From NCBI GenBank assembly GCA_022843095.1, contig JALHOH010000001.1, positions 1 through 32,000 on the forward strand: a stretch of DNA of 32,000 bases. Reading direction: 5' to 3'. The DNA comes from Candidatus Saccharimonadota bacterium (lineage in GTDB: Bacteria > Patescibacteriota > Patescibacteriia > 2-12-FULL-60-25). A model generated the notes under the pieces. The model ran no database searches. It had not been told where the DNA came from and was given only the letters and a program-made list of their open reading frames with translations. The translations under genes and the position numbers were made by a program. Positions 1-31,895 of the stretch are shown here, in pieces (position 1 is the stretch's first letter; each line of letters opens with the position of its first letter).

Positions 1-267
1 GAGCTGTTGCGCGAACACCTGCGCCTCGCGGGGATCACGAGGAGCGATCTCTTCGCGAGCGACGCGACGCGCAAGCCGATGACCTTCTACGACCTGCGCG
101 CGACGGGCATCACGTGGCGCGCGATTCGCGGGGACGAACCGCTGCGTATCCAACGGGCTGCGGGACACACGGGGTTCGACACGACGCAGGGTTACATCCG
201 TGAGGCAGAGAGCGTGCGAGATGGGTTTGGTGAGGTGTTTCCCACGGTTGTTCTTACACGATCGTGA
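1..267 (+). CDS. Tyrosine recombinase (phage-integrase family), C-terminal fragment; 5' end lies outside the window
   Basis: The frame is open from nt 1 to the stop at 265-267. The translation ...FYDLRATGITWRAIRGDEPLRIQRAAGHTGFDTTQGYI... carries the C-terminal box pattern (xDLRxT ... GH ... Y nucleophile) of tyrosine recombinases. Confidence 0.8.
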   Translation, partial: ELLREHLRLAGITRSDLFASDATRKPMTFYDLRATGITWRAIRGDEPLRIQRAAGHTGFDTTQGYIREAESVRDGFGEVFPTVVLTRS

Positions 268-304
268 CTGGCGCCGGCATCGACGCGATGTCACGCTAGG
301 CGCC

Positions 305-520
305 ATGCTTCACGAACTCGCTCGAAGGCTGCCCGAGTGGAACGGTTCGCCGACCGATATTCAAGGCGGCCCAGTTGCTCGTGGTTGGGAGATGATCCTG
401 CGCGTCGCGAACGAAGAGATTCGGGTCGTCGCTCCGTCCGAAGCGTTGGCGATCGCCGAGCTACGTCGCGATCTGCGACAACGCGCAGACACGGCTCGTG
501 TGCGTGCTCGCTACGGCTGA
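305..520 (+). CDS. Hypothetical small protein (71 aa)
   Basis: ATG at 305 inside ORF 200..520. Composition is protein-like (MLHELARRLPEWNG...EALAIAELRRDLRQ). No recognisable motif. It overlaps the 3' end of the convergent ORF 511..864 by 10 nt. Confidence 0.3.
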   Translation: MLHELARRLPEWNGSPTDIQGGPVARGWEMILRVANEEIRVVAPSEALAIAELRRDLRQRADTARVRARYG

Positions 521-864
521 AGCCACTCGGCGAGCTCTTTCGCGACTTCGCCCGCGAAGTTGAGCGCATCGAGACCCCACCACTGTCCCGTTTGCGGCTC
601 GGTTGGATGCCACCGGGCGACAAGGGTCCGCGTGAATTCGTTCCACGTGATCGACACCTCTGTCGCAGACACGCGCACGGCGGAAGGTGGTGGATCTGCG
701 CTGCTCCACAAGCCGCTCGGCGCGCTGAACAACTTGTTCAGCTCCGTCGCGACCAACTCGGCTGCGGCGGCTGCGTCGTGCTCAAGCTGGTTGTGTCCGC
801 CCATGAGCACGCGTTCGAAAGCGGTGGTCAACGCAATCATCATCGCCCTCGACGGTGGGGTCAT
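511..864 (-). CDS. Hypothetical protein (117 aa)
   Basis: ORF with GC-rich third codon positions in the stretch I checked by hand and non-junk composition (…AFERVLMGGHNQLEHDAAAAAELVATELNKLF…). No motif recognised. The ACGTTAACGT palindrome lies 7 nt upstream of its start. Confidence 0.4.
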   Translation of the reverse strand: MTPPSRAMMIALTTAFERVLMGGHNQLEHDAAAAAELVATELNKLFSAPSGLWSSADPPPSAVRVSATEVSITWNEFTRTLVARWHPTEPQTGQWWGLDALNFAGEVAKELAEWLQP

Positions 865-868
865 GCGG

Positions 869-1130
869 TGACGTTAACGTGTCGCATGACCATGCAGTCA
901 ATCGCGAACTGCTTCGAGTTACGTCACGGGTTACGTCACGGACCCAAAGGAAAGGCCCCGGAACCTTGCGATTCCGGGGCCTTATGAGTGCGAGGAGGGG
1001 GACTTGAATGCCAAGGGGGCAACACGAGCGTACACGAAGTGGCGGAAAAGATGCGGAATCGCGTCACGGGGTTACGTCACGACGTGCCACGGAGAGGCGT
1101 TTCGTCACGGGTTACGTCACGGGCGTGACG
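869..1130. repeat. Cluster of GTTACGTCACGG direct repeats arranged as three tandem pairs, plus inverted partial copies
   Basis: Perfect tandem pair at 918-929 and 930-941. A second pair (gCGTCACGG g GTTACGTCACGa) lies at about 1061-1082. A third pair (GTTtCGTCACGG GTTACGTCACGG) lies at 1099-1122 and runs into the inverted repeat CGTCACG-gg-CGTGACG (1115-1130). The 10-bp palindrome ACGTTAACGT at 871-880 contains an inverted near-copy of the repeat core. Confidence 0.85.
952..983 (-). terminator. Rho-independent terminator-like hairpin
   Basis: Perfect 12-bp stem AAGGCCCCGGAA / TTCCGGGGCCTT with an 8-nt loop. On the minus strand it is followed by TTTCCTTTGGG. It could end transcripts coming from the 1315..5090 operon. 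Confidence 0.5.
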
Positions 1131-1314
1131 GAACTGAGTGAGGCTCGGTCGACGGCGAATGACCGCGACCCGACGAAGACATGCCCTGAGAGAAGCGATC
1201 GCGGCGACCGGTTGAGTGAGGCAGTCCTGCCGCACCACTTGGGACCGCCGAACAGGTAGGCTCCGCTCGTCCGGCGGACGCCATCGAAACTGAAACCTTG
1301 TGGCCGACCCGTTG

Positions 1315-1794
1315 TCACTGGAGTAGCTCGTCCGGGTTCCTTCGAGCGAGCAAGAAATCACATACTGAACACGGTAGGTGCCGGACCATCTCCGTGGGAA
1401 CGACCGCCAGAATGGTTGGCTCGGAGCCATCGGATTGCCGCTCCCAACTCCACGTGAGCAGAGCTGCGGCACCTTCCTTGTCGGAGCGAAGTATCGAGAC
1501 GTAGGTTGCGCGCTCTGGAATGGCGACACGGCGTCGAACCGCATCTCGAACAGCAGGCCAAATCAGGGTCTCCGCAGCAGCACAGTCAGCTTGCCAAGCT
1601 GGACACTCCTCAACGCTCTCGTCCTCGTTTCCGTCGTCATCGACAACGGGTTCCATGGCGACCAGCATTTGCTCGTCCCGCGCTTGTTCTGGATCGGTGA
1701 CGTAAAGCCAGCGAATCGTGACCAAGCCGAGGTCGGGGTGAGTGACCGTGCACTTGTTGAGGATGTAGTCGTTGTCCTGTTTTCCACCCATCAT
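1315..1794 (-). CDS. Hypothetical acidic protein (159 aa), last gene of the GHKL/MTase operon
   Basis: ATG at 1794 is preceded by GGAAGGAG about 6 nt upstream (reverse complement of 1798-1808). Contains an acidic tract, VVDDDGNEDESVEE. No family recognised. It does not resemble Vsr. Confidence 0.55.
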   Translation of the reverse strand: MMGGKQDNDYILNKCTVTHPDLGLVTIRWLYVTDPEQARDEQMLVAMEPVVDDDGNEDESVEECPAWQADCAAAETLIWPAVRDAVRRRVAIPERATYVSILRSDKEGAAALLTWSWERQSDGSEPTILAVVPTEMVRHLPCSVCDFLLARRNPDELLQ

Positions 1795-1881
1795 AAGCAC
1801 TCCTTCCTCATCGACCGAACTTCCCGCCGATCTCATCATCAATGCCACATGCTCCGCGGTAATACACCGCACGAACCAGCA

Positions 1882-2955
1882 TCATGAATTCGCAACATGC
1901 TGCTGCAGAAGGCTTGTTGCAAGGTGCTCCGCGAAGTCGCACGGGAGAGCGTTGCCGATCATCGTACAAGCAAACTCCATGTAATTCGTCACGAATTGAT
2001 AGTCGACTGGAAACGTCTGAATCAACGCAGCTTCGCGAACCGAGATCGTTCGTAGCTGATCGGGATGACCGAAGCGCCCCTTGCTCGGAGTGGTGCACCC
2101 TCCAGTGATGGTCGGTGCCGGCTCATCCCATGTCATACGGCCGTACACATTCTGAAATCCAGACGACAAATCCTGATGACATTCAGGGCGGCTCCGCTTG
2201 GGGATTTTAGACCAGCGACCTCCCGGTTTCGCGTGGCGCAATCTGGTCTTGTTTGCGCTGGAGATGTCTCGAACAACGTGCCAGTCGGTATTCGATGGCC
2301 CTCCTGCTGCGAGAGCAGCTGACAGCGTGTTCGGCGTACCCAATGTCGACATTTGGCCGCTCAAATCTCGTAGACTTCTCCACTTAGGCAGCCCATTCTT
2401 GCCGCCGCGCGAATGAGTCGGGGCCGGAAGTGACGGCTGAAATTTTCGACTTGCGAACAACACGAGCCGACGCCGTCGCTGCGGCACTCCGTAGTCGGCG
2501 ACCTGAAGCACGCCCCACGCTAGGCGGTAACTCATTGCGCGAAGGCTTCGGAGAAGCTTGTTGAAATGCGCTTCGCCCTTCATGGCCAAGCCAGGCACAT
2601 TCTCCATCATGACAAGATCTGGCCGCAACTCACGCGTAAGTCGGGCAATTTCAAAGACGAGTTCGTTGCGTGGATCTGGTGCTGACGAACTGCGAGTCAG
2701 ACTTGAAAACCCCTGGCAAGGCGGGCATCCAGCAATCATATCGAGTCGATCGATTCCGATCTTTCGCAGAATGGCGTCACCGCTGAGATTTCGAATATCT
2801 TGTTCGAATACGTGAACGTCCGAATGATTAGCTCTGTACGAGGCGGCGGCGTGCTTCTCGAGCTCGATGGCTGCGCGCACCGCAATGCCAGCACGTTTGA
2901 GTCCGACTGTCAGTCCTCCGCAGCCCGCGAAAACATCGATAGCGTGAAGCTTCAT
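1882..2955 (-). CDS. DNA (cytosine-5)-methyltransferase
   Basis: All canonical C5-MTase motifs are present: DVFAGCGGL (I), GCPPCQGFS (IV), MENVPGL (VI), QRRRRL (VIII), GNALP (X). Confidence 0.95.
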   Translation of the reverse strand: MKLHAIDVFAGCGGLTVGLKRAGIAVRAAIELEKHAAASYRANHSDVHVFEQDIRNLSGDAILRKIGIDRLDMIAGCPPCQGFSSLTRSSSAPDPRNELVFEIARLTRELRPDLVMMENVPGLAMKGEAHFNKLLRSLRAMSYRLAWGVLQVADYGVPQRRRRLVLFASRKFQPSLPAPTHSRGGKNGLPKWRSLRDLSGQMSTLGTPNTLSAALAAGGPSNTDWHVVRDISSANKTRLRHAKPGGRWSKIPKRSRPECHQDLSSGFQNVYGRMTWDEPAPTITGGCTTPSKGRFGHPDQLRTISVREAALIQTFPVDYQFVTNYMEFACTMIGNALPCDFAEHLATSLLQQHVANS

Positions 2956-5090
2956 CGTTCCTTCACCGCCAATTTTCGCTGACGTTCGGCCTCCTTCAGG
3001 AACGCCTCGTGAGTCTGTCGAGTTCGACGCAAAAATGCAGTCCAGCCAATGTGCTCAAGCTCTTCATCGTTGACGAACTTATCGAACGCTTTCTTCGCAA
3101 CACTTTTCAGAGCGATGCCATCACAAACGAGAGTGATATGGAATCCCCCCTGAAACAGCCTCATGAAGTCCTCGTTCTTTCTGTCGTGCAGAAATTTTGC
3201 GAGGACATCGTAGTAGGTGTTGATTCGCTCAAACTCTTCATCGGTCAATTTGTGGTGCGGGCGCTTTATCTCGATGATCTCAATGCGACCGTCCACAGAG
3301 GTCATAACGAAGTCTGGCCGCTTCTTCGTGATTGACGGATCAAAGTCAGCCAGCTCGGTCGTTCGATCCGTTTCTGCCTTGTATAGCTTCAAGAATTCTG
3401 TGCGCAGAACATTGAACGACTCGTTCGCGGTAACAGGCGACCAGTGCGGATTGATTAGCCACGGAGCATCTTCGAGCAGCTTCTGTAGGGCATCCTCTGC
3501 GGTGTCTGCGCCGTCCTTTAGTACTTCAAGTCGCCGAATGACTTCTACCCGGTCATGTGCGATGGAACCAAAAGCCGAAAGTTCTGCAATCCGCGCGGTT
3601 CTCAACAGGCTAGACAGCATTTCAAGCGGGGAGTCGCTATCGCTGGCGGCCTCGCGCATCTTGGCGGTAAGTTCAAGATGAGGAGCGAAGTTCAGGGTCA
3701 ATTGTACCAGGGAATCTATCGTCGCTTTGTCGTCGAGTTCGTCCTCGCGCAGCGTTTTTCCGAGAAGTTGAGCTAGTTCGTCAGCGCGTTTGCGGATCGG
3801 TTCATGCGCATCACCCGGGAACATCTTGCTAATCTTGTTGTCAATGTCCGATTTTTCTCGAAACCGCTCCCAGATCTTCTTCTTCATCGGTTCCCGCGAC
3901 AAAGTTCCCACATTGACAACGAGTTCCTGCCCCCACTGTTGAAATGCCTGACATAGATCGTCCGACCAGAGGATATCTCGACGATCGGTTTGGATGAGAT
4001 CCTCTTCCTCGTCCAGCCAGTCTGCCTCTAGTTGACCAACGAGGTAGGAGCGGATGTTGAACTCGCCGGTAAATCCCGAGCGGCGATTGAAGAGCGCTGT
4101 CTGAGCGGCGATCTTACCTCGGCAGTAGATTCGGATTCCTGCCATCAGTTCGTCGCGGTAGGGTTCTTTGGAGTATGCAACCCATCCTACGACCGGATAG
4201 AATCTGCCTTCGAACTCAAAACCAGCCTGAAGCGGCTTTCCATCTGATGTACGCGTCAGCACCTTATCGTCGGGCGTGATGACCGCGTACGACGACGCTT
4301 CCGTTGGAGGAAAGTCTCTCTTCAGCTCGAGACGGATCTCTGTGCCAGGACTCTTCGGGATCTCGAACTTGCCCACAATTCGCGGTTCGGACGAACCGGA
4401 AGATGTGTCCACGATGTTGATCTGCCAGTTGGGGGTCGGAATGCCGAAGCGCTGCGCGAGCTGTCGTTCGAGCTCTTCGACCGCCGGGACCATGCGCTTC
4501 GAAAATTTTGACAGTACGAGTTTCGTGCCCGGTTTCGCATCATACTCGCCGTCGCGTGAACCAATTTCTGGATGGTAGGCCTGCTCGGAATCGGTAAGAA
4601 TCTGCGATCGATCAAGAATGAGATGAGAGACAATATATCCCAACTCCTTCCCTTCGACCGTAGTACGCAGATCTCCTCCTGCTGTCTCAAGTTCGATTCG
4701 CTCGCAGATGCCAAATGGGGCGAGTTTTCCTACCCCTTTCCGACCCATCACTTTCCGCTTAAGGGACCTCGTCCGATCGCCTCGTGCAGAATCCTTGCGT
4801 CGTTCTCCTCCTACCTTCAGGTAAAATGCGTTCACTTCTTCGGGCGTCATTCCATGACCGTTGTCGGCGACGACGATCTCCAGCCCTTTGTCTTCAAGCG
4901 CGCCGCCACGTTTGGTGGCGAGCGTTGTGCCCAATGGGGCACGAATGTTGACGCTGGTCGCATCTGCGTCGTATGCGTTGGCGATAAGCTCGGCAATCAC
5001 GGCGCTGACTTTGTCGTATAGTTTGACGCCAAGCTTGTCGACAGTGAGCCGCGAGATCGTCATCGAGTACTTGGCTGCGTCAGATTTCAT
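2952..5090 (-). CDS. GHKL (Bergerat-fold, MutL/MORC-like HATPase_c_3-type) ATPase fused to a C-terminal PD-(D/E)xK nuclease-like domain (712 aa)
   Basis: N-terminus: ELIANAYDAD (N box), VADNGHGM (G1), GRKGVGKLAPFG (G2). C-terminus: RPDFVMTSVDGRIEIIEIKRP, i.e. D593...E607-I-K609 (nt 3312-3314 and 3264-3272). GGAG lies 8-11 nt upstream of the ATG. The stop overlaps the MTase start (ATGA at 2952-2955). Confidence 0.85.
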   Translation of the reverse strand: MKSDAAKYSMTISRLTVDKLGVKLYDKVSAVIAELIANAYDADATSVNIRAPLGTTLATKRGGALEDKGLEIVVADNGHGMTPEEVNAFYLKVGGERRKDSARGDRTRSLKRKVMGRKGVGKLAPFGICERIELETAGGDLRTTVEGKELGYIVSHLILDRSQILTDSEQAYHPEIGSRDGEYDAKPGTKLVLSKFSKRMVPAVEELERQLAQRFGIPTPNWQINIVDTSSGSSEPRIVGKFEIPKSPGTEIRLELKRDFPPTEASSYAVITPDDKVLTRTSDGKPLQAGFEFEGRFYPVVGWVAYSKEPYRDELMAGIRIYCRGKIAAQTALFNRRSGFTGEFNIRSYLVGQLEADWLDEEEDLIQTDRRDILWSDDLCQAFQQWGQELVVNVGTLSREPMKKKIWERFREKSDIDNKISKMFPGDAHEPIRKRADELAQLLGKTLREDELDDKATIDSLVQLTLNFAPHLELTAKMREAASDSDSPLEMLSSLLRTARIAELSAFGSIAHDRVEVIRRLEVLKDGADTAEDALQKLLEDAPWLINPHWSPVTANESFNVLRTEFLKLYKAETDRTTELADFDPSITKKRPDFVMTSVDGRIEIIEIKRPHHKLTDEEFERINTYYDVLAKFLHDRKNEDFMRLFQGGFHITLVCDGIALKSVAKKAFDKFVNDEELEHIGWTAFLRRTRQTHEAFLKEAERQRKLAVKER

Positions 5091-5168
5091 TCGAGTTTCT
5101 CCATGCTTACTCGCGAGTTGTCGACGAAGCGGACAGATGACAGAATCGACCGTTGGTGGAAGTGTTTG

Positions 5169-5198
5169 ATTTTACACGCGCGTGTTCGCGCGAGTAAA
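5169..5198 (-). promoter_or_regulatory. Possible sigma-70-type promoter of the GHKL/MTase operon
   Basis: On the minus strand: TTTACT (5193-5198), 18-nt spacer, TAAAAT (5169-5174), about 80 nt upstream of the ATG at 5090 in an AT-richer spacer. Eye match only. Confidence 0.3.
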
Positions 5199-5315: not shown

Positions 5316-6350
5316 TCACGACACCGCCCGCACCACGATCCCGCTGCCGTCGTTCGCCGCGCTCGCGGGCTCGGTGGCCATGAGGTACTCACCCGCAGAG
5401 CGCTCCAACACGAAGCGCAGCTCGGGGTCGTCGTTCTTCGCGTGCGCGACGTACGTCACGGCCTGGACAACGCCATACCGCGAGTGATCCCCGTCCTTCA
5501 GCGCGACGGTCTGCGCCTCGCGCACGAGCTCGCGCGGGATCGCCGCGTTCTCGAGCATCGCTTCGATGGCCGCGTCGGGGTGAGGCACGAGCGTCGAGCG
5601 AGCTGCCTCCATGAGCGCGAGCGTCTGTCCCCAACGGGAGGGCAGATTCTTCATCGCGACCGCAAGCGCAGCCACGAGCTGATCGGGGTCGATCTTGCGA
5701 TGCGTGCGGTACAGCAGGCGCTTTTCGCCGACAGACACGATGAGCCCGTTCATGCACGCGAGGCGGAGCCACGCGTCGTCGATCGTGAGGGCAGCGCCCG
5801 CGACCTCGCTGTTCCTGAGCGTCCAGCCGGGGAGAAGCGCATCGTCCCCCACCTTGCGCACGTCCACGTGGACCGCGCTGTAGATGGTGGTTGCGTCCGT
5901 GCGATCGACGCGCGTGAAGCGGAACGTATCGAGCGCACGACCGAAGGTCTCAGCCATCGTGTCGAAGATCCGCACATCGTCGATCGGAGAGAAGTTGGGC
6001 CCCAGCATCGCGCGGAGCACGACGCCTGTGGGCGCGCGTTCCTCGCGGATCGTGCGGAGCTTCACTTCGCCGGGCAATCGTGTGAGGCGGCGATTGGTCT
6101 CCTCCGCGCGCTCGGTGCCCGAGACGGCGTCGGAGAACCAGCGTTCCCAGCGGACGCCGAGGAGCGCGGCGAGCTGCCGCTTGGACCACGAGTTCAACGT
6201 GAGCTCGGGCAGGTTCGGGGCGCGGAGCGATCCCTCGGGCGTGAACCGAAGATCCGCGTAGCGGACGAGGGTGTCGGGCAGCGCGCGAGCGGCGCGCTCG
6301 CGCACGGCTTCGTGGACGTCGTGAAAAGACACCGTGTCGTTCAGGTTCAT
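5316..6350 (-). CDS. DUF932-like (phage/plasmid-related, TIGR03299-type) protein (344 aa)
   Basis: Length and layout fit. The central LRLACMNGLIV...LLYRTHRK segment resembles the conserved C-x-N-G ... R-H core of DUF932 proteins common on ICEs and plasmids. AGGAGG lies about 10 nt upstream of the ATG. Confidence 0.65.
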   Translation of the reverse strand: MNLNDTVSFHDVHEAVRERAARALPDTLVRYADLRFTPEGSLRAPNLPELTLNSWSKRQLAALLGVRWERWFSDAVSGTERAEETNRRLTRLPGEVKLRTIREERAPTGVVLRAMLGPNFSPIDDVRIFDTMAETFGRALDTFRFTRVDRTDATTIYSAVHVDVRKVGDDALLPGWTLRNSEVAGAALTIDDAWLRLACMNGLIVSVGEKRLLYRTHRKIDPDQLVAALAVAMKNLPSRWGQTLALMEAARSTLVPHPDAAIEAMLENAAIPRELVREAQTVALKDGDHSRYGVVQAVTYVAHAKNDDPELRFVLERSAGEYLMATEPASAANDGSGIVVRAVS

Positions 6351-6510: not shown

Positions 6511-7359
6511 TCAGTCCGCGCTCGCGTTGTCGTTCGCAGCGCGACCGTCCCACTGCGCGCAGAGCGCGGCGAACGGGCAGTGCGTGCAGAGCGCGCCGGG
6601 TGTGGGCGGAAACACCTTGGCAGTGATCCCGCGCACGACCTCGTGCGCCGTCGCGACGAAGAACGCGCGGTCGTTGTCGCTCACGCGGACGTTGCGCACG
6701 ATGACCTCTGGAACGCTGGAGGCGACCATCGTGACGAGCGAGACATGCGGACGCACGCCGTGCATGCGCTCGTATGCGAACGCGTAGGCGGCGAGCTGAA
6801 GCAGGTGCTCGCGCGTTCCGAAGGGCTGTCGATGGGCTGTCTTGAACTCGACGATGCGATCGTCGGGACGAACGAGGTCCATCCGCCCTGCGAGATCGAG
6901 GGTGTCTGAGAGCGGCACGCGCACGTCGGGTTCGACGGCGAGTACCGCATCGTCCGCGCAGGCGTCGACGTAGCGGGCGATGAGCTCTGCCCCGCGCTCT
7001 TCATACACCTTGGCGGAGAAGCCCGAGAGGTACCGAAGCCCGTTCTTGGGGCGATCGAACCACTTGCTCCGAAACACATCCGCCGCCTGATCCGCACGCG
7101 GATACCCACCCACGGAACGGTAGTGGTGGACCCATTCGAGGGCCTTGTGCATGACCTGGCCGAACGCGCGTGCGGCGGGCTCGAAGGAAGGAACAATCCC
7201 CTCTTCGTGCTCGAACGCATACTGCCGCGCACACGCGAGGTACTGCTTGATCCGACTGACGGTGATCGCGGGACGCTTCGGCCCCTCGTGGTCGTCGGGA
7301 ACGACCGCGAGCGGCAGGCGCATGCGCGCGACCTCTTGATGATCCGTGCCTGTATTCAT
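6511..7359 (-). CDS. Cas4-like / RecB-family PD-(D/E)xK exonuclease with a 4-Cys (Fe-S) cluster (282 aa)
   Basis: N-terminal Cys (YLACARQY), D...E-x-K (MDLVRPDDRIVEFKT), QxxxY (LLQLAAYAFAY) and C-terminal CTHCPFAALC (C-x2-C-x5-C). I chose the ATG at 7359 because it forms an ATGA overlap with the upstream stop. The longer ORF extension (to 7545) is R-rich junk. Confidence 0.8.
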   Translation of the reverse strand: MNTGTDHQEVARMRLPLAVVPDDHEGPKRPAITVSRIKQYLACARQYAFEHEEGIVPSFEPAARAFGQVMHKALEWVHHYRSVGGYPRADQAADVFRSKWFDRPKNGLRYLSGFSAKVYEERGAELIARYVDACADDAVLAVEPDVRVPLSDTLDLAGRMDLVRPDDRIVEFKTAHRQPFGTREHLLQLAAYAFAYERMHGVRPHVSLVTMVASSVPEVIVRNVRVSDNDRAFFVATAHEVVRGITAKVFPPTPGALCTHCPFAALCAQWDGRAANDNASAD

Positions 7360-8420
7360 GAAACTCCGTCCTCCTCCGTGCACGAAGCGGATGGCGAGCC
7401 ACCGTGGCCCGTGCTTCCGCTTCGCGCGCTTGGAGAACCGAGCGATGCGTGGGCAACGACAACACCGGCTCGTTTGAGCTGTGCGCGAAGCGTGCTCCGC
7501 GCAACCCCGAGCTTCCGTGCTGCCGTCGCGATGCGTCCGCCACATGCCACGAGGACGGCGCGAAGCAATGCGGCGCTCGGCGAACCGACACGCACGCTGC
7601 CCAGGTCTTCTGCGGCGAGCACGGGCGCGATCTCCGCGGCACCGAGGAGGGCGAGGTCGCTTTGGACCGCCGCGCGACGGAGCACGTTCTGCAGCTGCCG
7701 CACGTTGCCCGGCCAGCGCGCCGCGCGAAGCAAGGCCTCTGCGTCCGCGCGGAGCGTGCGAGGCCCGAGCTCCTCATGGTGTGCGGCGAAGAACGCGTCC
7801 GCGAGCTCTGGGATGTCCTCGGGCCTCGCCCGAAGTGCGGGCGTCCGAAGGACGAGCACGCGAAGGCGATACAGCAGATCGCTGCGGAAGCGCTTCTGCG
7901 CGACGCGCTCGGACAGGTTCTCGCGCGAGGCGACGATGAGTCGCACGGACACGCGCTTCATCCCCTCTCCTCCGACGGGACGAAGCTCACCGGTCTCGAG
8001 TACGCGCAAGAGCGACGCTTGTGCAGCAGCACTCGCCTCTGCGATCTCGTCCAGAAACAGCGTGCCGCCGTCTGCTTGCTCGAAGAGCCCGCGGTGCGTG
8101 CGATGGGCGCCGGTGAAAGCGCCTTGCACATGACCGAAGAGCTCGGAGCCAAGGAGCGTGGGCTCGATCGCGGCCACGTTCGCTGCGACGAACGGACGCG
8201 CGCGGCGCAGGCTCTCGGCGTGCAGGGCGCGAGCGACGAGCTCTTTGCCCGTTCCGCTCTCGCCTTCGATCACGACGGGGGCCGTGGACGGCGCGAAGCG
8301 CTCGATGTCCGCGCGGAGCGATTGCATGAGCGCGCTCTCGCCCACCAAGGCGCGCAGGGCGCGGTTGGCAGGGCGGATGCGTTCCAGGTGAATGACGTTG
8401 GTGGGAGGGGGATCGTCCAT
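7356..8420 (-). CDS. Sigma-54-dependent transcriptional activator (bEBP), AAA+ plus Fis-type HTH, with no N-terminal sensor domain (PspF-like)
   Basis: GESGTGKE (Walker A), GAFTGA, LFLDEI (Walker B), RWPGNVRQL, and a C-terminal IATAARKLGVARSTLRAQLKRAG HTH. The ATG at 8420 is preceded by AGGAGGAG. Only about 25 residues precede the AAA+ core. Confidence 0.9.
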   Translation of the reverse strand: MDDPPPTNVIHLERIRPANRALRALVGESALMQSLRADIERFAPSTAPVVIEGESGTGKELVARALHAESLRRARPFVAANVAAIEPTLLGSELFGHVQGAFTGAHRTHRGLFEQADGGTLFLDEIAEASAAAQASLLRVLETGELRPVGGEGMKRVSVRLIVASRENLSERVAQKRFRSDLLYRLRVLVLRTPALRARPEDIPELADAFFAAHHEELGPRTLRADAEALLRAARWPGNVRQLQNVLRRAAVQSDLALLGAAEIAPVLAAEDLGSVRVGSPSAALLRAVLVACGGRIATAARKLGVARSTLRAQLKRAGVVVAHASLGSPSARSGSTGHGGSPSASCTEEDGVS

Positions 8421-8430
8421 GGGCGTCTCC

Positions 8431-8490
8431 TCCTGCACGCGACGAAAGGTGCGATGGGATCACGCATGATGCGTGTGTTCGCGTGCAGGA
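8431..8490 (-). promoter_or_regulatory. Inverted repeat in the bEBP leader, partly overlapping its Shine-Dalgarno sequence
   Basis: 12-bp arms TCCTGCACGCGA (8431-8442) and TCGCGTGCAGGA (8479-8490). They enclose a second small palindrome, ACGCAT-g-ATGCGT. Confidence 0.4.
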
Positions 8491-31731: not shown

Positions 31732-31818
31732 TGGTGGGCAGGCAAGGATTCGAACCTTGGAAGGCACAGGGCCAACAGATTTACAGTCTGTCCCGTTTGA
31801 CCGCTTCGGTACCTGCCC
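31732..31818 (-). tRNA. tRNA-Tyr (anticodon GUA), CCA encoded
   Basis: The reverse complement folds as acceptor GGGCAGG/CCTGCCC, D stem CCG/CGG, anticodon arm ACAGA-CTGTAAA-TCTGT, a long variable arm, and T arm CAAGG-TTCGAAT-CCTTG, followed by A-CCA. Confidence 0.9.
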
Positions 31819-31819
31819 C

Positions 31820-31895
31820 TGGAGCCGTAGACCAGGATTGAACTGGTGACCTCGTCCTTACCATGGACGTGCTCTACCAACTGAGCTACTACGGC
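31820..31895 (-). tRNA. tRNA-Thr (anticodon GGU), CCA encoded
   Basis: The reverse complement folds as GCCGTAG-TA-GCTC-AGTTGGTA-GAGC-A-CGTCC-ATGGTAA-GGACG-AGGTC-ACCAG-TTCAATC-CTGGT-CTACGGC-T-CCA. Confidence 0.9.

Follow-up and report, generated by a model that had tools for sequence, protein, structure and literature searches.

A probable restriction-modification cassette of the HgiDII/BbrUII kind with a GHKL ATPase-nuclease fusion in a Candidatus Saccharimonadota genome

The first 32,000 nucleotides of the forward strand of contig JALHOH010000001.1 from a Candidatus Saccharimonadota bacterium (assembly GCA_022843095.1), referred to as the window in the following, carry a locus of three minus-strand open reading frames (ORFs) that were designated R, M and ORF3. 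Most probably, R and M represent a horizontally acquired two-gene restriction-modification (R-M) cassette of the HgiDII/BbrUII kind, in which R specifies a GHKL ATPase fused to a putative PD-(D/E)xK nuclease and M a C5 cytosine DNA methyltransferase (MTase). Judged from sequence comparisons, the locus is a new member of a large and poorly annotated sister clade of HgiDII/BbrUII. The positions of the three ORFs given in an earlier note on this DNA were borne out and are compiled in Table 1 together with the other features of the locus.

Table 1. Predicted features of the R-M locus and its borders in the window
Feature	Position	Strand	Description
R gene	2952..5090	minus	712-aa ORF; GHKL ATPase, middle domain, helical linker and PD-(D/E)xK nuclease; predicted HgiDII/BbrUII-like restriction endonuclease
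GHKL (Bergerat-fold) ATP-binding domain of R	4446..5069	minus	approx. aa 8-215; Pfam HATPase_c_3, E 3.2e-18
Middle (transducer/S5-like) beta-rich domain of R	3966..4445	minus	approx. aa 216-375; secondary structure of the AlphaFold2 (AF2) model, Foldseek
Long helical linker of R	3456..3965	minus	approx. aa 376-545; AF2 helices 377-541; ends in P543-W544-L-I-x-P548
PD-(D/E)xK nuclease domain of R, Shedu/DUF4263- and NucS-like	2955..3455	minus	approx. aa 546-712; E565, D593, E607-x-K609
M gene	1882..2955	minus	predicted 357-aa C5 cytosine DNA methyltransferase; Pfam PF00145, TIGR00675, PADLOC MTase_II
ORF3	1315..1794	minus	159 aa, acidic, lineage-specific orphan; Shine-Dalgarno sequence (SD) and ATG, without family match
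Sigma-70-like promoter candidate TTTACT-18-TAAAAT	5169..5198	minus	upstream of the start of R (approx. 80 nt); consensus scan
Tyrosine-recombinase (integrase) 3' end	1..267	plus	translation ends ...LRATGITW...AGHTGFDTTQGYIRE; borders the lower-GC cassette

The classification of R as a restriction enzyme relies on full-length profile matches. The deduced protein matched the NCBIfam model NF050001, named "BbrUII/HgiDII family restriction enzyme", with an E-value of 5.5e-74 and 249.9 bits, and residues 8-703 of R were aligned collinearly and in a single stretch to positions 1-647 of the 659 positions of the model. Additionally, the PADLOC model REase_II (PDLC03419) matched residues 7-634 with an E-value of 2.2e-37, and phrog_6203, a family of unknown function, matched R over its full length (E 1.9e-80); the PHROG families comprise proteins of phages and archaeal viruses. 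A sequence search of R against the chains of the PDB returned spurious TALE-repeat matches only.

The AF2 model of R (mean pLDDT 71.7) consists of four parts, namely a beta/alpha N-terminus, a beta-rich middle, the helices 377-541 and an alpha/beta C-terminus. Complete Bergerat motifs had been reported in the earlier note for the N-terminus of the 712-aa protein, and all GHKL motifs were found there (E34-xxx-N38-xx-D41, D76-x-G78-x-G80 and G116-R-K-G119-V-G121-K122), along with the HATPase_c_3 match given in Table 1. As in GHKL ATPases of the MutL/Hsp90/MORC type, the Bergerat motifs I-IV are followed by a middle domain. Every residue of the GHKL motifs is invariant in 17 close homologues with 53-62% identity to R, as are D593, E607 and K609 of the C-terminal domain; in an alignment of 45 members with identities down to 23%, the residues N38, D41, D76, G78, G80, G119, G121, D593 and E607 are likewise invariant, and E34 and K609 are kept in at least 90% of the sequences. 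Because the motif residues are conserved across homologues, the earlier sequence observation was confirmed and is no chance pattern; by these alignments, the motif pattern in R is far beyond chance. The intact and invariant ATPase site argues that R uses nucleotide. Within the middle domain, G318 is invariant both in an alignment of ten sequences and in that of the 45 members, and K326, located in the motif R-G-K-I/L-A and invariant in the ten-sequence alignment, may be the lysine that contacts or senses the gamma-phosphate. The residues W544 and P548 of the helical linker are also conserved in the alignments of R.

A Foldseek comparison of the R model with the PDB yielded TRAP1/Hsp90, MutL, MLH1 and MORC2 with E-values from 2e-9 to 1e-7, the alignments comprising 370-570 columns and spanning the GHKL and middle domains of Hsp90, MutL and MORC2. 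The N-terminal 350-500 residues of R accordingly resemble these proteins, with TRAP1 as the best match (E 2e-9) and with TM-scores of 0.60 for MLH1 (normalised to the target) and 0.54 for the N-terminal domain of Bacillus subtilis MutL. Nevertheless, the sequence identity to MutL, Hsp90 and MORC2 amounts to only 10-15%, and R ends in a predicted PD-(D/E)xK domain rather than in the MutL endonuclease or the Hsp90 dimerisation domain.

The PD...ExK block described in the earlier note was located in RPDFVMTSVDGRIEIIEIKRP, which represents residues 591-611 of R and carries D593, E607 and K609, so that the aspartate of motif II and the ExK of motif III of Shedu nucleases are both present. A family-level Pfam scan of the 45 diverse members detected SduA_C in 23 of them (counted at E-values up to 0.01, best value 5e-6), HSDR_N_2 in 15, HSDR_N in ten and NucS_C in seven (best value 2.2e-7), all of which are PD-(D/E)xK families. 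Moreover, a precomputed PF14082 match is present on some R homologues, and the PADLOC SduA models matched R with E-values of about 1e-3 over approximately 27 residues around the ExK motif. A separate AF2 model of the C-terminal domain (pLDDT 72) displays an alpha-beta-beta-alpha-beta-alpha-beta core that places D593 and E607/K609 on neighbouring strands. On account of the family-level scan, the adjacent-strand geometry of the model and the invariant D...ExK residues, we accept the C-terminus of R as a putative PD-(D/E)xK nuclease. Profile, motif and family-level evidence thus agree with the combination of GHKL ATPase and Shedu-like nuclease in one polypeptide that had been suggested in the earlier note.

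The deduced product of M matched Pfam DNA_methylase (PF00145) with an E-value of 1.7e-59 and 202.3 bits against a cut-off of 22, TIGR00675 with 1.1e-45 and 156.7 bits against a cut-off of 100.65, and PADLOC MTase_II with 2.7e-89. The catalytic motifs FAGCGG, PPCQ, ENV, QRRRR and GNALP were identified in the translation, and by these matches M is classified as an intact C5 cytosine methyltransferase. The canonical nature of this enzyme was hence verified, as was the overlap of the R stop codon with the M start codon in the sequence ATGA at 2952-2955. A consensus scan for promoters detected the site upstream of R (Table 1) as its only match between positions 900 and 5500. Since shuffled sequences gave a mean of 1.6 matches, this promoter candidate is considered weak.

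R homologues are numerous. Among 8000 candidates scored, over 2000 clusters (90% identity) matched R, 2482 representatives at 50% identity matched R with E-values up to 1e-3 in a search that covered 1.84 billion proteins, and 343 stretches matched R in the species-representative genomes of the GTDB. These matches span the Planctomycetota, Nitrospirota, Acidobacteriota, Cyanobacteria, Proteobacteria, Chloroflexota, Firmicutes and other phyla, and the only name assigned to close relatives of R at the NCBI is "ATP-binding protein". For the analysis of synteny, the 80 best R loci were searched with M and ORF3 by tblastn. In 72 of these loci, which belong to many phyla, R is followed directly downstream and in the same orientation by an orthologous C5-MTase gene with 50-59% identity; one further locus has it in opposite orientation. 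No C5-MTase gene was detected in two loci, one of them situated at a contig end. In the remaining five loci (L050, L056, L057, L066 and L073), R orthologues with 50-52% identity are paired with a different C5-MTase that is 25-28% identical to M of the window and is sometimes encoded on the other strand; because five R orthologues carry a different enzyme, a methyltransferase replacement within the clade is suggested. An adjacent and co-inherited pair of nuclease and MTase, as it characterizes Type II R-M systems, was hence found, and the linkage to the MTase appears obligate-looking in the R clade. The synteny check proposed in the earlier note therefore spoke for the functional coupling of the ATPase-nuclease to the C5-MTase as an R-M module, and against the third gene as part of the unit, as ORF3 was detected in none of the 80 loci.

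According to a clustering of the flanking ORFs, the commonest neighbour in the related loci is a Vsr-like endonuclease of about 150 aa, which occurs in 41 of the 80 loci and is mostly encoded right after M; no Vsr gene was detected in the window by tblastn (best E 1.2). By inspection of the cluster representatives, genes of Type I R-M systems, integrase genes and antitoxin-like or toxin-antitoxin-like genes recur near the related loci, and a helicase-like cluster is present in eight of them. No helicase gene was found in or beside the cassette of the window, nor was a gene for a controller protein found at the cassette.

With respect to the distance between the window's clade and the type members of NF050001, 20 superfamily representatives scored between 172 and 400 bits on this model and all stayed under 550 bits. 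Representatives that are about 30% identical to R scored 213-400 bits, and the window's own clade 172-250 bits. An alignment across both score tiers retains all ATPase and nuclease residues (E34/N38/D76xGxG and D593/E607/K609), so that these are also present in the superfamily members with scores of 300-400 bits. A homologue search that started from the nearest NF050001 representative returned only the names "ATP-binding protein" and "hypothetical protein", and a search of plasmids only distant "ATP-binding protein" matches that were 23-27% identical over the greater part of the length. The GHKL-nuclease gene of the relative P0249, which is nearer to the HgiDII model (400 bits on NF050001), forms a same-strand array of four genes (L084, positions 236-5094, and L085) together with genes for a C5-MTase of 458 aa, a glycosylase of the HhH-GPD type and an HNH protein; the accessory set of the P0249 array differs from the Vsr of the window's clade.

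The earlier note had described the third gene as SD-preceded and acidic and had been unable to assign it to a family. These statements hold: the 159-aa form of ORF3 begins with the ATG at 1794, is preceded by the SD GGAAGGAG, has a pI of 4.4 and gave no family match in Pfam, PADLOC, NCBIfam and PHROGs. The longest frame starts with a GTG at 1872 and comprises 185 aa. Homologues of ORF3 are near-identical only and consist of its own four-member cluster at 90% identity and one other 90% cluster with 95% identity, as found among approximately 5.8 billion clusters. The gene arrangement of the window is retained in contig L083, the one near-identical contig examined. Relative to L083, 18 of the 27 nucleotide differences in ORF3 are located at codon position 3, and the ratio of synonymous to non-synonymous codon changes is 15:8; owing to this coding-like substitution pattern, ORF3 is regarded as a real gene. 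It diverges faster than R and M, with a nucleotide identity of 94.4% compared to 98.3%. The corresponding ratios of 33:3 for R and 18:0 for M point to strong purifying selection on both genes. No terminator-like site was detected in the 87-nt gap between M and ORF3, which is probably co-transcribed with the R-M genes. As far as these comparisons go, ORF3 is a local orphan that is not conserved as part of the system, and the trio perceived as a unit in the earlier note reduces to a pair. Two candidate roles were rejected, that of a divergent Vsr on the grounds that ORF3 has no similarity to Vsr, and that of a controller protein on the grounds that it matches no family, including no helix-turn-helix family. 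The protein contains five cysteines, including a C-x6-C arrangement (ECPAWQADC) and a C-terminal C-x2-C (CSVC), and may be a small zinc-binding protein.

The foreign origin of the cassette is indicated by its base composition. The GC content amounts to 51-59% over positions 1001-5000 and to 63-69% in the flanks, and the GC content at third codon positions (GC3) is 0.60 in R, 0.58 in M and 0.63 in ORF3 (185-aa GTG frame, 1315-1872), compared to 0.73-0.88 in high-GC3 ORFs elsewhere in the window. Together with the adjoining 3' end of an integrase gene, the low GC and GC3 values lead to the conclusion that, by composition, the cassette is horizontally acquired. The end of the integrase translation, AGHTGFDTTQGYIRE, was read from the sequence as the R-H-x-x-G-H...Y C-terminal region of a tyrosine recombinase; a Pfam search with this 86-aa fragment gave no match. 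No convincing repeats, direct or inverted, that could represent att sites were found at the borders of the cassette.

Proteins with a related architecture have been described before. Orlowski and Bujnicki 2008 (PMC2441816) recognized an N-terminal GHKL domain and a C-terminal domain of unassigned fold in R.HgiDII and distinguished four more subfamilies of GHKL-containing restriction endonucleases, one of them with a PD-(D/E)xK C-terminus. Iyer, Abhiman and Aravind 2008 (PMC2292703), who were cited in the earlier note for systems with separate nuclease components, in fact also described paraMORC3, in which GHKL and S5 domains are fused to a restriction-fold (RE-fold) nuclease with the residues E-D-ExK, and they reported cytosine methylases and Vsr in the neighbourhoods of paraMORC3 genes. 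GHKL-DUF4263 proteins were termed Shedu type 1D by Gu et al. (2023 preprint), who found 602 Shedu genes embedded in R-M loci. According to Adams et al. 2025 (PMC12137116), the stand-alone GHKL-DUF4263 protein VcSduA of V. cholerae defends against T1-like phages, and this defence is abolished by the substitutions E27A (ATPase) and K557A (nuclease). With respect to the methyltransferases, M.BbrUII was presented as a 5-methylcytosine (m5C) methyltransferase homologous to M.HgiDII in PMC5867850, at odds with PMC5829577, in which N6-adenine methylation was attributed to it. On the basis of PMC2441816, PMC2292703, Gu et al. and PMC12137116, a GHKL-nuclease fusion is neither unnamed nor new; together with the full-length alignments to the NCBIfam BbrUII/HgiDII and PADLOC Type II restriction endonuclease models, these publications dispose of the non-canonical architecture assumed in the earlier note.

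R of the window resembles R.HgiDII and R.BbrUII in its collinearity over the full length, in the N-terminal GHKL domain, in the distinctive C-terminal domain and in its m5C MTase partner. It differs in that it is about 50-60 residues longer than the NF050001 model and approximately 25-27% identical to the representatives nearest to it. The order of GHKL domain, Hsp90/MORC-like middle domain and putative PD-(D/E)xK nuclease is shared with VcSduA, Shedu I-D and paraMORC3, and R keeps the catalytic glutamate of the ATPase and the ExK lysine that are needed for defence by VcSduA, E27 of VcSduA corresponding to E34 of R and K557 to K609. In contrast, VcSduA is a single gene without a methyltransferase and the clade of the window is tightly coupled to one, and the resemblance of R to Shedu profiles is sub-threshold and confined to the nuclease core. 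The combination of a GHKL ATPase with a cytosine methylase, with Vsr frequent near the clade, is reminiscent of MORC/paraMORC R-M operons; these typically comprise SF2 helicases and separate nucleases, whereas the cassette of the window is devoid of a helicase and has the nuclease fused.

The architecture shared with VcSduA, which acts alone, raises the question whether R is a stand-alone immune nuclease of the Shedu I-D (VcSduA/paraMORC3-like) type that senses an infection cue through its GHKL domain and is accompanied by an independent MTase, either an orphan or one belonging to another system. The weak matches of SduA_C and of the PADLOC SduA models to R, the superfamily members without an adjacent MTase in Streptomyces and Leptospira and the location of the 602 Shedu genes of Gu et al. 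merely inside R-M loci are in line with this explanation. It is nevertheless judged unlikely, as in 72 of the 80 genomes, which belong to many phyla, R is succeeded by the orthologous MTase gene in the same orientation (50-59% identity), R and M of the window overlap by ATGA, the best full-length profile is that of a curated family of restriction enzymes, the type members of which are accompanied by cognate m5C MTases, and the PADLOC SduA models cover only the surroundings of the ExK motif. Little credence is given to a three-component system in which R would need ORF3 as a regulator, a DNA mimic, an inhibitor of the antitoxin type or a factor that confers specificity. ORF3 is regarded as a real gene, as its substitutions are coding-like, an SD precedes it and nothing resembling a terminator was detected behind M; its GC3 is as foreign as that of R and M, it stays with them in L083 and it encodes an acidic protein. 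On the other side stand its absence from all 80 related R-M loci, the near-identity of all its homologues in approximately 5.8 billion clusters, its faster evolution with eight non-synonymous changes versus three in R and none in M, and the common occupation of the downstream slot by a Vsr-like gene in relatives. Least credible, and very improbable in our estimate, is a methylation-linked repair or maintenance device in which a MutL-like ATPase-nuclease and a C5-MTase, joined by Vsr in relatives, act on T:G mismatches or damaged methylated sites. Such a role could be read from the N-terminal domains of MutL and MLH1 among the structural matches, the occurrence of NucS_C, a mismatch endonuclease family, in seven of the 45 members, the adjacent Vsr in 41 of the 80 loci, the HhH-GPD glycosylase and HNH protein in the operon of one relative and the repair role that Iyer et al. 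(PMC2292703) raised for some paraMORCs. The patchy distribution over multiple phyla, the foreign composition and the adjoining integrase rather fit a mobile selfish or defence element, as do the Type I R-M, integrase and toxin-antitoxin-like genes seen by inspection near the related loci, and the curated family is one of restriction enzymes. Moreover, Vsr ordinarily accompanies m5C R-M systems, beside which it is common, and repairs the deamination of 5-methylcytosine.

The assignment to a HgiDII/BbrUII-like R-M cassette has to be set against several observations that weigh against it. The score of R on NF050001 (250 bits) does not reach the equivalog cut-off of 550 bits, and because it is far under this value, the R clade is treated as a sister clade and R not as a demonstrated isoschizomer of HgiDII. 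Of the profile and structure checks recommended in the earlier note, those with HATPase_c_3 and DNA_methylase were significant, but SduA_C scored only 21.5 bits on R (E 2.8e-4; gathering score 27 bits), and with the C-terminal model none of the Foldseek matches was significant (best E 0.14). The restriction-fold nucleases MspJI, Mus81, N.BspD6I and FokI headed this list and Shedu 8ti9 held rank 28, which offers weak corroboration only, and a search of PDB sequences with a profile of the C-terminal alignment found no nuclease. No biochemical data for the R clade of the window were found in the literature. In addition, the sequence GTCGAC, the target of HgiDII and BbrUII, is not depleted in the window (21 observed versus 19.4 expected; observed/expected ratio, O/E, 1.08). 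Finally, farther members of the superfamily in Streptomyces and Leptospira occur without an adjacent methyltransferase, so that the nuclease is evidently able to function outside R-M systems. Since the superfamily comprises both MTase-linked and solitary members, the same machine seems to exist as part of R-M systems as well as in a Shedu-like mode. Of the MTase-less copies (L086, 590-5911; L088, 1327-3180), that of Streptomyces adjoins genes for a Type IV enzyme (AspBHI-like, Mrr_cat) and a DUF8370/DUF8371 protein, and the Leptospira copy has unannotated neighbours with a BrnT toxin gene nearby.

Palindrome frequencies were also analyzed in 0.93-1.0 Mb of pooled related loci (flanks of L002-L081), derived from genomes that carry the R-M clade. 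In this pool, which is without control genomes, GTCGAC was the third most depleted hexamer with an O/E of 0.67-0.68, and CTCGAG the most depleted one with 0.50; in the window, CTCGAG likewise ranked as the most depleted hexamer and had an O/E of 0.42 (11 observed versus 26.4 expected). The depletion of CTCGAG and GTCGAC may hint at a specificity for a TCGA core or may reflect a general avoidance of palindromes, the latter because all NTCGAN palindromes were depleted and the hybrid non-palindromes CTCGAC and GTCGAG were enriched (1.21). Palindrome avoidance was rejected as a means to deduce the recognition site, since a depletion is not attributable to R without system-free control genomes.

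For the favoured HgiDII/BbrUII-like cassette, the following mode of action can be proposed. R and M would be co-transcribed and translationally coupled via ATGA, and M would methylate the host copies of a short target sequence. By analogy with GHKL mechanics and VcSduA, an R dimer would form through the ATP-dependent closure of the GHKL domains; ATP binding would shut this N-terminal gate around DNA held in a clamp of the middle domains, and the long helical linkers would position the two C-terminal nuclease domains. The closed gate may then license or position the paired nucleases, leading to the cleavage of unmethylated target DNA, and C5 methylation by M would block recognition or cleavage and spare the host DNA. 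Speculatively, a slow ATP-dependent activation might let modification precede restriction in a new host. ORF3 would be a lineage-specific passenger in the slot that is held by a Vsr-like mismatch endonuclease in many relatives. As a more far-reaching and tentative proposal, which we hold to be possible though not probable, HgiDII, BbrUII and the sister clade would be Shedu I-D nucleases that have passed the discrimination of self and non-self to a C5-MTase and that exert ATP-requiring, sequence-specific restriction by means of a MutL/Hsp90-like clamp. A minor addition, if true, would be a role of ORF3 as lineage-specific modulator of the GHKL-nuclease machine.

Further features were noted around the cassette. 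Positions 918-1134, between the integrase end and ORF3, contain six copies of the 12-nt motif GTTACGTCACGG, arranged in two tandem pairs and as singles, one of them inverted, which flank a GC-rich hairpin at approximately 947-983 (GGCCCCGGAA...TTCCGGGGCC). With up to two mismatches, GTTACGTCACGG has ten matches in the window versus 2.8 expected, and no shuffle reached ten; the copies could be putative binding sites of a regulator or recombinase. Directly upstream of R, two minus-strand genes of 344 aa each are located at 5316-6350 and 6511-7545, one of which matches only phrog_1362 of unknown function (E 1.1e-11), and the other of which encodes a Cas4-like PDDEXK_1 exonuclease (E 1.3e-28) with a C-terminal cysteine cluster. 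Both have a host-like GC3, yet in both L001 and L083, two contigs, they stand beside the cassette and may belong to an older integrated element. A gene for a sigma-54-dependent activator (Sigma54_activat, E 1.7e-61; HTH_8) is encoded on the minus strand at 7356-8438, a few kb from the cassette, and the minus-strand positions 31732-31895, at the far end of the window, are occupied by adjacent tRNA-Tyr and tRNA-Thr genes.

As a discovery in its own right the locus matters little, since the architecture, the R-M context and the defence phenotype of a related protein have already been published. It does point to a very large clade of MTase-coupled GHKL-nucleases that extends over many phyla and is annotated as "ATP-binding protein" only, and of which apparently no member has been studied for ATP dependence or structure. 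Moreover, the locus links classical Type II enzymes to Shedu type I-D. As HgiDII and BbrUII are homologous to GHKL-type Shedu proteins, this relationship suggests that the N-terminal domain of Shedu I-D is a DNA clamp and not the sensor of misfolded proteins proposed by Gu et al.; R-M pairs would be convenient for testing the clamp, because methylation gives a clean on/off substrate. If the tentative Shedu I-D proposal is true, one machine would have two operating modes, represented by the R-M enzymes on the one hand and by VcSduA and other Shedu I-D proteins without an MTase on the other.

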